From Blastococcus sp. (GTDB taxonomy: Bacteria > Actinomycetota > Actinomycetes > Mycobacteriales > Geodermatophilaceae), in assembly GCA_035296685.1 (NCBI GenBank), contig DATHAK010000220.1, positions 610 to 64,609 on the forward strand: a stretch of DNA of 64,000 bases, read 5' to 3'. The notes beneath the pieces were generated by a model. The model was not told the DNA's origin. It did not search any database and worked only from the letters and a program-made list of their open reading frames with translations. Shown piece by piece: positions 2,049 through 61,960 of the stretch. The translations under genes and the position numbers were made by a program. Every line of letters starts with the position of its first letter. Position 1 is the first letter of the stretch.

Positions 2049-2074
2049 GGTTGAGGCGCGCACCCAGGGGGCAC
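2049..2074 (+). promoter_or_regulatory. SigB/SigF-type promoter of the CDF gene (leaderless)
   Basis: GTTG-N15-GGGCAC ending 10 nt before ATG 2085; no SD. Confidence 0.5.
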
Positions 2075-2084
2075 GGGTGCCGCC

Positions 2085-3137
2085 ATGACACAGCCGGCGC
2101 CGACCACGGAGCACGCCCTCGCCCGTGAGGCCCGGCAGGCCGACGCCGCCCGGCGCGGCGACAGCGAGGAGGCCGGGGGCGAGTCGACCGGCACGGTGAT
2201 CGTCGCCGGGCTGGCCAACCTCGCGATCGCCGTCGCCAAGCTCATCGGCGGCCTGATCAGCCACTCGTCGGCGATGCTGTCGGAGGCGGCCCACTCGGTC
2301 GCCGACACCGTCACCGAGGTCTTCCTGTTCGTCGCCCTCAAGCGGGGCAACCGCCCGCCGGACGCCAAGCACCCGTTCGGCTACGGCCGGGAGACCTACT
2401 TCTGGGCGTTCCTCGCCTCGCTCGCCACGTTCGGCCTCGGCGCCGGCTTCTCGATCTGGCAGGGCGTCACGACCATCGTCGAGGGCGAGGAGCAGGGCGA
2501 CCCACTCGTCTCCTACATCGTGCTGGCCGTCTCCTTCGTGCTCGAGGGCGTGTCCTGGCTGAAGGCGGTGCGCCAGGTTCGAGGCGCCGCCCGCAAGTGG
2601 GACGTCACGCCCAAGGAGTACCTCTCCGGGACGACCGACACCACGGTCAAGGCCGTCACGTTCGAGGACACCGCCGCACTGATCGGCCTGGTCCTCGCCG
2701 CGGTCGGCCTGTTCCTGGAGCAGGTGACGGGCGACCCGGTGTGGGACGGCCTTGCGGCCGTCGTCATCGGCGTCCTGCTGGTCGTCGTCGCCTACGTCCT
2801 GGCCCGGGCGAACGTGTCGCTGCTCATCGGGCAGTCGGCGTCGCCCCGCCTCCAGGCGGAGCTGAAGACCGAGATCGCCGCCCTGGACCACGTCGTGGAC
2901 GTGCCCTTCCTGCTCACCTCGGTGATCGGGCCGGCCCAGCTGCTCGTGGCCGCGAAGGTCGACTTCGACGACGAGGTGTCCGCCGCCGACATCGAGCGGG
3001 TGGCCGACGAGGCCGAGCGCCGCCTGGTGGCACGCCACGAGGGCGTCCGCTACGTCTTCCTCGACCCGACGGCCGGCGACGGACGGGCGCGGGCGCAGGC
3101 GCACCCCCTGCCCCACGAGGAGGCAGGGAATGCTTGA
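2085..3137 (+). CDS. Cation diffusion facilitator (CDF) family transporter
   Basis: SEAAHSVADT, HPFGYGRE, six hydrophobic segments, C-terminal dimerisation domain. Confidence 0.93.
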   Translation: MTQPAPTTEHALAREARQADAARRGDSEEAGGESTGTVIVAGLANLAIAVAKLIGGLISHSSAMLSEAAHSVADTVTEVFLFVALKRGNRPPDAKHPFGYGRETYFWAFLASLATFGLGAGFSIWQGVTTIVEGEEQGDPLVSYIVLAVSFVLEGVSWLKAVRQVRGAARKWDVTPKEYLSGTTDTTVKAVTFEDTAALIGLVLAAVGLFLEQVTGDPVWDGLAAVVIGVLLVVVAYVLARANVSLLIGQSASPRLQAELKTEIAALDHVVDVPFLLTSVIGPAQLLVAAKVDFDDEVSAADIERVADEAERRLVARHEGVRYVFLDPTAGDGRARAQAHPLPHEEAGNA

Positions 3138-3161
3138 GAGGACAACGAAGTTGGGGCAGGC

Positions 3162-3854
3162 ATGCAGGTAGAGGTCTGGTCCGACGTCGTGTGTCCGTGG
3201 TGCTACATCGGCAAGCGCCGCCTGGAGGCGGCCCTCGAGCAGTTCCCGCACCGCGACCAGGTCGAGGTCGTCTGGCGGTCGTTCCAGCTCGACCCGTCGA
3301 TCCCGGAGGGCGAGACGCACCCGACGCTGCCCGCGCTGGCCGCCAAGTACGGCACCAGCGTCGAGGCGATGAGGGCCAACATGGCCCGCGTCGAGGAGCT
3401 CGCGGCGGCCGAGGGACTCGAGTACCACCTGGCCGACGGCGTCAGCGGCAACACCCTGCGCGCCCACGAGCTGCTGCACCTGGCCGCCGAGCGCGGGCAG
3501 GGCGGCGAGCTCAAGGAGCGGCTGCTGCACGCCCACTTCGAGGAGGGGCGCTCGGTCTTCGACGTCGACTCCCTCGTGGCGCTGGGCGCCGAGGTCGGGC
3601 TCGACGAGACCGAGGCCCGCGAGGCGCTGGCCGACCGGCGCTACCTCGCCGCCGTCCGCCAGGACGGCGCCACGGCGCAGGCCCTCGGCGCGACCGGCGT
3701 CCCCTTCTTCGTCGTCGACCGGAAGTACGGCGCGGCGGGTGCCCAGCCGGCCGAGCTGCTCCTGCAGATCCTCGAGCGCGCCTGGGCCGACGCGCACCCG
3801 CTGGTCACCGTCCCGGCCGCCGACGGGTGCGACGACGGCAGCTGCGCCGTCTGA
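3162..3854 (+). CDS. DsbA/FrnE family oxidoreductase
   Basis: VWSDVVCPWCYIGKRRL, FQLDP, GVPFF cis-Pro loop. Confidence 0.94.
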   Translation: MQVEVWSDVVCPWCYIGKRRLEAALEQFPHRDQVEVVWRSFQLDPSIPEGETHPTLPALAAKYGTSVEAMRANMARVEELAAAEGLEYHLADGVSGNTLRAHELLHLAAERGQGGELKERLLHAHFEEGRSVFDVDSLVALGAEVGLDETEAREALADRRYLAAVRQDGATAQALGATGVPFFVVDRKYGAAGAQPAELLLQILERAWADAHPLVTVPAADGCDDGSCAV

Positions 3855-3855
3855 T

Positions 3856-60143: not shown

Positions 60144-60165
60144 GGACTTTGGGCGCCCAAAGTCC
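60144..60165. repeat. 22 bp perfect intergenic palindrome
   Basis: GGACTTTGGGCGCCCAAAGTCC. Confidence 0.85.
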
Positions 60166-60183
60166 CGAGACCGGAGGACGACG

Positions 60184-61759
60184 ATGTCCGCACCGCGCAT
60201 CCACACCAGCGAGTTCCCGCCGGTCGAGACGCCCTCGACCCCGATCTGGCAGACCGTGCTGGCCGATGCCGCGGCCCGCAGCGACCACCCGGCCCTCGTC
60301 GACGGCGTCACCGGGCAGACGGTCACCTACGGGCAACTGGCGCAGATGGTGGACCGGATGGCCGCCGGCTTCGCCGAGATCGGGGTGGAGCCGGGCGACG
60401 TCGTGGCCCTGCACAGCCCCAACACAGTGCTGTACCCGGTCGTCTTCTACGCGGCCAGCCGGGCGGGAGCCACCGTCACCACGCTGTCGGCGCTGACCAC
60501 GGCCAAGGACATGGCCAACCAGCTCGACGACAGCAAGGCGACGATGGTGATCACCGTCGGCGCGCTGCTGCCGGTGGCGACCCAGGCCGCCGGTGACCGG
60601 CCGGTCTGGACGTGCGACCGGGTGGAGGGGCACCGCAGCGTGCAGGAGCTGCTCGCCTCGTCCGGCCCGGTGCCCGACGTCCCGGTCGACGCCGCCGAGG
60701 ACGTCGCCGTGCTGCCCTACTCCAGCGGCACCACGAGCCTGCCCAAGGGCGTGATGCTCACGCACGCCAGCATCGGCGTGAACCTCCGGCAGATCGACGC
60801 GCTGCACACGATGGGCACCGACGACCGGATCGTCGCCGTCCTCCCGTTCTTCCACATCTACGGGATGACCGTGCTGATGAACGTCGCGCTGCGGAAGGGC
60901 GCCACCGTCGTCGTCCTCCCGCGCTTCGACCTCGCGCAGTTCATCGACGTGCTCGAGCAGCACCGGATCACCCGGGCCTACGTCGCGCCGCCCGTGGTGC
61001 TGGCGATGGCGAAGCACCCCGCCTTCGAGGGCCGGGACTTCTCGTCCCTGACCTTCATCCTCAGCGCGGCCGCCCCGCTGGACGCCGAGCTGGCCGAGAT
61101 CGCCGCGAGGCGGCTGGACGCCGAGATCGGGCAGGCCTACGGGATGACCGAGCTCTCGCCGGGCACCCACCTCGTGCCCGACGGCACGGCACGGCAGGCC
61201 CCGCCCGGAACCGTCGGCAAGCTGTTCCCCTCCACCGAGGCCCGCCTGGTGTCGGTGGAGACGGGCGAGGACGTCGGACCCGGCGAGGACGGCGAGATCT
61301 GGATCCGCGGGCCGCAGCGGAGGCTACTTCGGCCGCCAGGAGGAGACCGACACCCTCATCGACGCCGAGGGCTGGCTGCACACCGGCGACATCGGCACGG
61401 TCGATGAGGACGGCTGGTGGTTCGTCGTCGACCGGGTCAAGGAGCTGATCAAGTACAAGGGCTACCAGGTGGCCCCCGCCGAGCTGGAGGCCGTCCTGCT
61501 GGCCTCGCCCGACGTCGCCGACGCCGCGGTGATCGGCGTCTACGACGAGCGGGGCGACGAGGTGCCCAAGGCGTTCGTCGTCCGGGCGCCGGGCAGTACC
61601 GCGAGCGAGGACGACGTCCTCGCCTACGTCGCCGAGCACACCGCGCCGTACAAGCGGGTGCGCCGGGTGGAGTTCATCGACGCGGTGCCGAAGTCGGCCA
61701 GCGGCAAGATCCTGCGCCGCGAGCTGCGGGCGCGCGAGAAGGAGGGGTCGGGCGGCTAG
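60184..61759 (+). pseudogene. AMP-dependent CoA ligase (4-coumarate-CoA ligase-like) with frameshift at 61321
   Basis: YSSGTTSLPKG, QAYGMTE, GEIWIRGPQ in frame 1; GYFG..GWLHTGDIG..DRVKELIKYKG..PAELE..GKILRR resume at 61322 in another frame. Confidence 0.9.
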
Positions 61760-61899
61760 ACGCTGTCGGCGCCGCCGGCGTCGGTGTCCTCGCCCTCGGC
61801 CGGCTGCTCGGGATGCGGCGTCTGCCCGCCCTCGCCGGTGCCGGGCTCCTCGGCGCCCTCGGCCGGCTCGGCGGTGTGGGCGTTGTCCGGCTCGGTCAT
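61756..61899 (-). CDS. Small acidic hypothetical protein (47 aa), absent from the ORF track
   Basis: MTEPDNAHTAEPAEGAEEPGTGEGGQTPHPEQPAEGEDTDAGGADSV*; GGAGG RBS; stop overlaps the ligase stop (CTAG). Confidence 0.75.
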   Translation of the reverse strand: MTEPDNAHTAEPAEGAEEPGTGEGGQTPHPEQPAEGEDTDAGGADSV

Positions 61900-61935
61900 C
61901 GTCGGGTCCTCCTCGGTCCGTCGCTCGACCGCCCT

Positions 61936-61960
61936 GTGCCCGGCCGGAGGCGGCGGAAAC
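61936..61960 (-). promoter_or_regulatory. SigB/SigF-type promoter
   Basis: GTTT-N15-GGGCAC. Confidence 0.65.

Follow-up and report, generated by a model that had tools for sequence, protein, structure and literature searches.

The window analyzed here is a 64,000-nt stretch of contig DATHAK010000220.1 (positions 610 to 64,609, forward strand) from the Blastococcus sp. assembly GCA_035296685.1. It carries a dispersed set of putative SigB/SigF-type promoters, mostly upstream of genes for very small acidic proteins. Both strands of the window were searched with the pattern GTT[TCG]-N14-16-GGG[CA]A[CTG], which had been proposed in a first-pass annotation of the same DNA. Start codons were taken from a codon-usage gene caller trained on the source genome (4555 genes, 89% coding). 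Eight matches were retrieved, and the rescan recovered all six sites of the first-pass annotation among them. Each of the six lies in an intergenic gap with a called start ahead. Five are on the minus strand, and only the site at 2050-2074 is on the plus strand.

For comparison, 10-kb loci around the gene p141 were fetched from 20 genomes representing 11 genera of the Geodermatophilaceae. Loci of relatives carry L-numbers, and WIN denotes the window. The gene order p45 - tetR - p141 - p52 - lapA-like - fadE - p71 - p59 was syntenic throughout the 20 loci. In the island as proposed, p47 and znu precede p45. p55 and the gene for a cation diffusion facilitator (CDF) are located about 40 kb away.

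The p55 promoter is on the minus strand at 5082-5106. It reads GTTC-N15-GGGCAT and ends 9 nt before the ATG of p55 (4905-5072, minus strand). The arrangement GGTT-N15/16-GGG(C/A)A-N9-ATG was found in 17/21 genomes and in 22/32 named Geodermatophilaceae genomes, with a variable spacer. When a broader pattern was used, 26 of 32 examined loci matched it, and the distance to the ATG was 9 nt in 22 of these. p55 encodes an acidic mini-protein, predicted to be disordered, that starts MTVTDPDVPDPLNDPRTLQADPGA... and has an isoelectric point (pI) of 4.05, 16 Asp/Glu and 2 Lys/Arg residues. It is present in 20/20 family genomes at 70 to 91% identity and shares the motif MTVTDPDxPDP..DPRTxQADPGA across genera. 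Its 941 homologue clusters are all annotated as hypothetical protein, and the named sources are only Geodermatophilaceae. Longer p55 homologues are not mis-called N-terminal extensions over the promoter, since they have the same start and differ at the C terminus.

A gene of the ArsR family (5127-5474) diverges from p55. The palindrome GCGTAACNNNNNNGTTACGC lies between the two genes at 5117-5138, just upstream of the p55 -35 box, and is conserved in most family genomes. It is likely an ArsR operator and could also gate the p55 promoter. Downstream of p55 is a gene for a 320-aa protein (3856-4818, minus strand). It has GGGCAGGAT 6 to 9 nt ahead of its start (near 4819-4840), which can be read as a SigF-type or as a housekeeping -10 element.

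The p71 promoter is on the minus strand at 43613-43637 and probably serves both p71 (43364-43579, minus strand) and p59 (43177-43356, minus strand). It reads GTTT-N15-GGGCAT and would give a 33-nt leader with the ribosome-binding site GGGAGG. CGTTTC...GGGCATG was recovered across genera with a diverged spacer; the strict GTT was kept in 9/14 loci and GGGNA in 14/14. p59 has a weaker internal promoter of its own at 43366-43389 (minus strand), GTGC-N14-GGGCAT, 9 nt from its ATG. This is the site that had been listed as a partial match at 43366, and it is indeed present. The GGGGCA box of p59 was kept in WIN, L007, L013 and L025. Where p71 is absent (L011, L015 and L024), p59 carries a full GTTT...GGGCAT promoter. 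The two acidic mini-proteins are paralogues, and the single L024 gene matches both. Conserved motifs are DPQGSDRIQQD and VPLTRE(D/E)AxERD in p71 and TLTTDDEAQxDDxVxRPGN in p59.

The GTGC block of the p59 site recurs elsewhere. GTGC(A/G)T, about 14 to 15 nt before GGG(C/T)A, replaces GTT as the -35 element at several otherwise good sites. These are 43366-43389, G000 C121:6522, C53:3213 and the CDF orthologues in L051, L053 and L054. It is possibly a tolerated -35 variant.

The p45 promoter is on the minus strand at 47835-47860. It reads GTTT-N16-GGGCAG and lies 10 nt from the ATG of p45 (47687-47824, minus strand). CTGTTTC ... GGGCA(G/C)GCTG ... ATG was kept in 11/13 genomes. In all orthologues, the -10 region can equally be read as NANNNT (CAGGCT or CACGCT). 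The acidic N-terminal half of p45 is free to vary, and its basic C-terminal tail, (V/T)(A/S)R(M/L)LANPRRxR, hardly changes from genus to genus. The tail looks like a short linear binding motif. Nearly all members of the 148 homologue clusters are exactly 45 aa long. A GC-rich hairpin lies directly 3' of the p45 stop codon (47662-47686, minus strand). Its 10-bp stem is part of a structure 71 nt long (-28.8 kcal/mol, z = -1.6), and its tail has no U-run. The hairpin is likely the terminator of a one-gene unit.

The p47 promoter is on the minus strand at 61936-61960 and reads GTTT-N15-GGGCAC. It lies 36 nt from the start of p47 (61756-61899, minus strand) and would give a leader with the ribosome-binding site GAGGAGGA (GAGGAGG). 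It was kept in 10/11 genomes; the L021 copy, 10 nt from the ATG, is predicted to be leaderless. p47 encodes an acidic mini-protein without Lys or Arg, and its relatives carry two copies of GRTPHxExxAEG.

Most relatives have p47 about 1 to 3 kb from p45, beside znu-like transporter genes (about 3 kb in L021-L023 and L026). The two genes are 14 kb apart in the window. About 10 kb of plus-strand genes (51714-61407), including an acyl-CoA carboxylase/atu-like cluster, lie between them. This suggests an insertion or rearrangement within an ancestral stress island.

The CDF promoter is on the plus strand at 2050-2074. It reads GTTG-N15-GGGCAC and lies 10 nt from the ATG of the CDF transporter gene (2085-3137, plus strand). 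The gene encodes a 350-aa protein that matched Pfam Cation_efflux (5e-43) and TIGR01297 (7e-49). GGGGCAC followed by 10 nt and ATG was found in 9/9 orthologous loci. GGTT is present at -35 in 4/9, and the others carry GTGCAT or GCTTG.

When upstream regions were pooled, 70 orthologous promoter instances were available. They read G-T-T-(T in 64%) at -35 and GGG-(C in 69%, T in 24%)-A at -10, with spacers of 15 to 17 nt. By sequence comparison, the promoters of p55, p71 (with p59), p45, p47 and CDF are thus conserved in position in up to 11 genera while their spacers vary. By chance, about 2.4% of 100-nt upstream regions would hold a -35/-10 pair. Retention of 70 to 90% at the same position is strong evidence that these sites function.

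The remaining matches in the window do not appear to be SigF promoters. The match upstream of p141 (46865-46888, minus strand) reads GTTT-N14-GGGAAC and lies 11 nt from the start of p141 (46428-46853, minus strand). It had been counted as a member of the regulon. Its GGGAAC is unique to the window and was absent in the 20 orthologous loci. The conserved element is instead the block C(A/G)CA(G/C)GAT, with CAGGAT 6 nt before the GTG, which has the housekeeping NANNNT geometry. The 141-aa product of p141 is 75 to 89% identical in 44 of the 47 matching genomes and about 56 to 57% identical in the other three (61 family genomes were sampled). One further match (61573-61596, plus strand) lies inside an open reading frame (ORF) at 61469-61759 on the plus strand and is a chance match.

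The match at 45659-45682 (minus strand), GTTT-N14-GGGAAT, lies upstream of fadE (43777-45621), which encodes an acyl-CoA dehydrogenase. GGGAAT is not conserved, and conservation here tracks two TTAC-N6-GTAA palindromes that the match overlaps. The palindromes, TTACCGGTGGGTAA and TTACTGGCGAGTAG, are of the form TTAC-N6-GTA(A/G), are highly conserved and lie at 45640-45715 (minus strand). They flank a housekeeping-like TTGCC...TAATA(A/G) promoter in all 20 family loci. They are probably the operator of the adjacent TetR-family regulator gene (46903-47523).

p52 (46173-46331) and the lapA-like gene (45753-46112) have clean GTTT-N15/16-GGGCA-N9/10-start promoters in some genomes, one of them from the same genus. 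In the window and in other genomes, they have housekeeping-type CACACT or CAGACT boxes. This is turnover of promoter type at these two genes (loci L007, L010, L011, L013 and L014). p52 contains the motif AGPSYPPA.TEPDA. Its codon-position figures are 68/80/200, with the excess at the third position.

The small proteins are real genes, to judge from the short invariant motifs that they keep across genera. p55, p59, p71, p52 and p47 have a pI of 4.05 and a grand average of hydropathy (GRAVY) of -0.9 to -1.3. They contain 12 to 17 acidic and 0 to 5 basic residues, and Gly makes up 8 to 17%. Their composition fits that of hydrophilins, a class marked by Gly above 6%, high hydrophilicity and induction under water deficit; p45, with 0% Gly, does not fit. 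Searches of Pfam and NCBIfam gave no match for p55, p71, p59, p52, p45, p47 or p141, and a PDB sequence search gave none for p141. Where homologues of p55 and p45 have a named source, it is Blastococcus, Geodermatophilus, Modestobacter or a relative of these; the others come from metagenomes. These named sources bear out the placement of the organism in the Geodermatophilaceae. The proposal that gene callers would often miss such proteins did not hold. All six exact sequences are already in the NCBI, JGI and ENA protein sets, and homologues of p45 and p55 are called at the same starts. With few or no Lys and Arg residues, the mini-proteins would go undetected in proteomics that relies on trypsin, despite their annotation.

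The motif was also counted across the whole 4.5-Mb, 73% GC genome. With spacers of 14 to 16 nt, the pattern matched 28 times in the 80-nt regions that precede 4323 predicted starts. Other spacers gave an expectation of 10.6 (Poisson p = 6e-6), and thirty dinucleotide shuffles gave 7.6 +/- 2.5 with a maximum of 13. The motif is therefore enriched over background near starts. GTT.-N15-GGG.A. occurred 32 times within 100 nt upstream of starts versus about 13 at other spacers. The GTTT-N14-16 form occurred 14 times over the same distance versus about 1 per spacer. Neither the loose nor the strict motif gave a spacing peak in the whole genome when gene position was ignored, and the signal is thus specific to upstream regions. 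The strict form GTTT-N14-17-GGG[ACT]AN was retrieved 21 times. Non-coding DNA, approximately 11% of the genome, accounts for 16 of these copies, and 5 copies fall in the window. The window also holds 7 of the 28 upstream matches with only 67 of the 4323 genes (1.5%; binomial p = 2e-7, post hoc). The regulon is thus fairly small, with a few dozen promoters, and is locally concentrated in the window.

The distance between the -10 box and the start codon is also nonrandom. GGGNAN has a sharp maximum at 9 nt ahead of start codons, where it was found at 86 genes compared with about 20 to 25 at neighboring positions. GGGTA was found at 9 nt in 23 genes and at 10 nt in 13 genes, over a background of 1 to 2. 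The housekeeping element TANNNT peaks at 6 to 8 nt before starts (179, 129 and 69 genes). Both the GGGNAN and the TANNNT peaks place a conserved A at -11 from the first base of the start codon. This is the expected place of that A when transcription starts at the start codon. At p55, p45, CDF and p59 the gap is 9 to 10 nt, which puts the A at -11 or -12, and it is constant across orthologues. A leaderless mRNA is thus a sound prediction for these four genes, and the same geometry holds genome-wide. The suggestion of leaderless starts in the first-pass annotation agrees with the gaps of 9 to 11 nt at CDF, p55, p141 and p45 and with the genome-wide peak. The register (GGGNA plus 10 nt to +1) could help to locate start codons in actinobacterial genomes of high GC content.

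The shared -11 register also means that housekeeping promoters whose extended -10 element is rich in G are present among the GGGNA cases. A housekeeping T at -7 was found in 48 of the 123 leaderless GGGNA genes. GTT at -35 was found in 13 of the 75 genes without this T and in 2 of the 48 genes with it. GGTT was the most enriched 4-mer of the -35 zone (14 versus 4.5 expected).

The genome encodes one sigma factor above the curated cutoff of TIGR02980 (SigB/F/G; 298 versus 234 bits). Its gene occupies positions 2694-3662 of contig C151 and overlaps the 3' end of a gene for a 165-aa HATPase_c_2 protein that resembles RsbW/UsfX anti-sigma factors. A gene for a 619-aa SpoIIE(PP2C)-HATPase_c_2-STAS protein diverges from this pair. 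Upstream of the anti-sigma gene, at a distance of 117 nt, is GTTT-N17-GGGTAG. GTTT(C/G)-N16/17-GGG(T/C)A was found at the same place in 19/21 family genomes with an unrelated spacer. A stress sigma operon behind its own promoter type is a classic self-regulating arrangement. The operon's own copy of the motif ties the motif to the C151 sigma factor as far as sequence analysis allows. The assignment of the promoters to the SigB/SigF type agrees with the conserved promoters, the one cognate sigma factor with its partner-switching module, and the motif before the operon.

The set of candidate targets comprised 52 genes whose 100-nt upstream regions contain GTT.-N14-17-GGG[CAT]A. Proteins shorter than 80 aa are encoded by 10 of them (odds ratio 2.8, p = 0.007). 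Among candidates beyond the window, 6 of 45 are this small, an enrichment that is not significant (odds ratio 1.8, p = 0.14). The view that the regulon is dominated by tiny proteins thus describes the window and not the genome, where most of the other candidates encode normal-size stress enzymes. In the whole genome, 15 ORFs combine a length of 40 to 80 aa with a pI below 4.2 and a GRAVY below -0.8; the window contains 5 of them. A GGG[CT]A box lies 8 to 60 nt upstream of eight of these ORFs, compared with 12% for all genes (p = 1.4e-4). For the 10 ORFs located elsewhere in the genome, the count was 4 (p = 0.025). An association between acidic mini-proteins and the GGG[CT]A promoter type therefore exists.

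Other candidate targets encode CsbD, PRC/DUF2382 (YsnF-like), GvpO, WhiB, DUF2630, DUF3040 and DUF5679 proteins. Further candidates encode a putative trehalose-pathway (TreZ-like) enzyme of the alpha-amylase family, an F420-type luciferase-like oxidoreductase and a CO-dehydrogenase flavoprotein. Aldo-keto reductases are also among them, named by sequence and not by Pfam scan. The candidates outside the window are typical of general-stress regulons.

We infer from these data that the promoters of p55, p71 (with the weaker internal start of p59), p45, p47 and CDF are probably read by the genome's single SigB/SigF-type (group 3) sigma factor. Under stress, the RsbW-like anti-sigma kinase would release the sigma factor, and the resulting RNA polymerase holoenzyme would bind (G)GTT(T/C/G) at -35 and GGG(C/T)A at -10, 15 to 17 nt apart. 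The sigma factor would switch on its own operon and a dispersed gene set. At p55, p45, CDF and p59, transcription would begin with the start codon itself and give leaderless mRNA. The p71 and p47 transcripts would have short leaders that contain strong ribosome-binding sites. The products are conserved, very acidic proteins of 45 to 71 aa, predicted to be disordered, with short invariant motifs. Our best guess is that the mini-proteins may act as stress-phase protectants or binding partners.

Several points weigh against this explanation. The -11 A is common to housekeeping promoters, and p45 has a T four bases past that A in all orthologues. The -35 element is loosely kept at CDF and p59, with GTGC or GCTT variants. 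Four further sigma genes score 94 to 144 bits against TIGR02980, below its threshold. The -10 boxes of the window are mostly GGGCA, whereas the sigma operon uses GGGTA with a spacer 1 to 2 nt longer. An iterative two-block position weight matrix gave about 25 matches of at least 16 bits versus 3 in a reverse-complement control, which is optimistic because the matrix was trained on the set it scored. It also over-fitted its seeds and dropped the conserved p55 and p45 sites, and it serves only as a rough estimate of regulon size.

The housekeeping register could mean that these are leaderless promoters of a SigA/HrdB-type factor, with the G run before the -11 A forming a G-rich extended -10. The T at -7 in part of the leaderless GGGNA genes fits this, as do the NANNNT box of p45 and the use of such -10 boxes by p141, p52 and the lapA-like gene. 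We consider it unlikely for the set as a whole. p55, p71, p47 and CDF have no conserved T at -7, and their conserved -35 element is GGTT or GTTT, not TTGAC. Enrichment of GTT is confined to the genes that lack this T, and the same motif stands ahead of the anti-sigma/sigma operon. p45 by itself may be recognized by the housekeeping factor or by both. A different alternative sigma factor, either one of the sub-threshold paralogues or an extracytoplasmic function factor, might also read the promoters. The four lower-scoring loci would supply candidates, and the preference for GGGCA with a 15-nt spacer in the window, against GGGTA with 16 to 17 nt at the sigF operon, could reflect a second reader. 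This too seems improbable, as only one gene exceeds the curated family cutoff and the GGGCA and GGGTA variants share GTTT and GGG-A. GTTT/GGGNA is moreover the documented SigF/SigB signature (PMC4694148, PMC6448022).

The pattern is loose and the DNA is GC-rich, and the matches could in principle be accidental. The window has 8 loose matches when about 4 are expected, the loose pattern has no genome-wide spacing peak, and the fadE and intragenic matches, and probably that at p141, are not SigF promoters. As an account of the sites, chance is extremely improbable. The spacing and position peaks are specific to upstream regions, the strict matches are mostly intergenic, and the blocks are retained across genera while the spacers have diverged. 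Conservation already contradicts it.

Reading by the SigB/SigF-type factor agrees with what is known of these systems. The SigB consensus is GTTTaa-N12-15-GGGwAw in Bacillus subtilis and GNNTN14-16GGGTAC/T in Streptomyces coelicolor. Streptomyces has nine SigB-like paralogues; the source genome has a single sigma factor of this type. Similarities with the B. subtilis and S. coelicolor SigB systems are the group 3 sigma factor, the partner switching, and CsbD-like, YsnF-like (DUF2382) and GvpO genes with the motif. Unlike those organisms, the source organism is not a spore former.

The SigF systems of Mycobacterium smegmatis and Mycobacterium tuberculosis share the two-block motif, an anti-sigma gene directly upstream of the sigma gene and a copy of the motif before the operon. 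The STAS and PP2C partner-switching parts resemble those of mycobacterial SigF (RsbW/UsfX anti-sigma factor, RsfA/RsfB antagonists). Oxidoreductases, small hypothetical proteins, WhiB and trehalose genes are target classes common to both. In M. smegmatis, SigF promoters follow the consensus GTTT-N14-19-GGGTA, which is found ahead of whiB, trehalose genes and many hypothetical genes (PMC4694148). In the same species, 56 transcription start sites induced by hypoxia were reported to have GGGTA at -10 (PMC6448022). Compared with mycobacterial SigF, the small-protein genes of the source genome mostly have GGGCA, not GGGTA. A high share of the targets is predicted to be leaderless, with a fixed gap of 9 to 10 nt. 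The acidic mini-proteins have no detectable relatives outside the Geodermatophilaceae.

The mini-proteins resemble hydrophilins, proteins of the late embryogenesis abundant (LEA) kind and other small disordered stress proteins. They are very hydrophilic, rich in Gly and Pro and predicted to be disordered, and they lie behind predicted stress promoters. They differ from these proteins in having no sequence relationship to them and no LEA repeats, and they are strongly acidic and almost without Lys and Arg. A broader proposal is that the locus is a family-specific syntenic island of acidic, Lys/Arg-poor mini-proteins wired to a stress sigma factor. They would be new protectants against drying or ion stress (cation buffers or chaperone-like shields), and their genes would switch between housekeeping and stress promoters within a genus. 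We regard this proposal as tentative and rather doubtful.

A literature search found no promoter, sigma-factor or transcriptome work on the Geodermatophilaceae. The regulatory mechanism is of the textbook SigF/SigB type, and the interest lies in the targets. The main value of the analysis is a ready set of promoter predictions and a list of conserved mini-proteins. A link to desiccation is a plausible hypothesis, and the five or six conserved uncharacterized acidic mini-proteins, together with p45 and its invariant basic tail, are candidates for tests of stress and drying tolerance. The predictions would provide the first testable map of a stress-sigma regulon in the Geodermatophilaceae, a family known to survive drying, radiation and life on bare rock.

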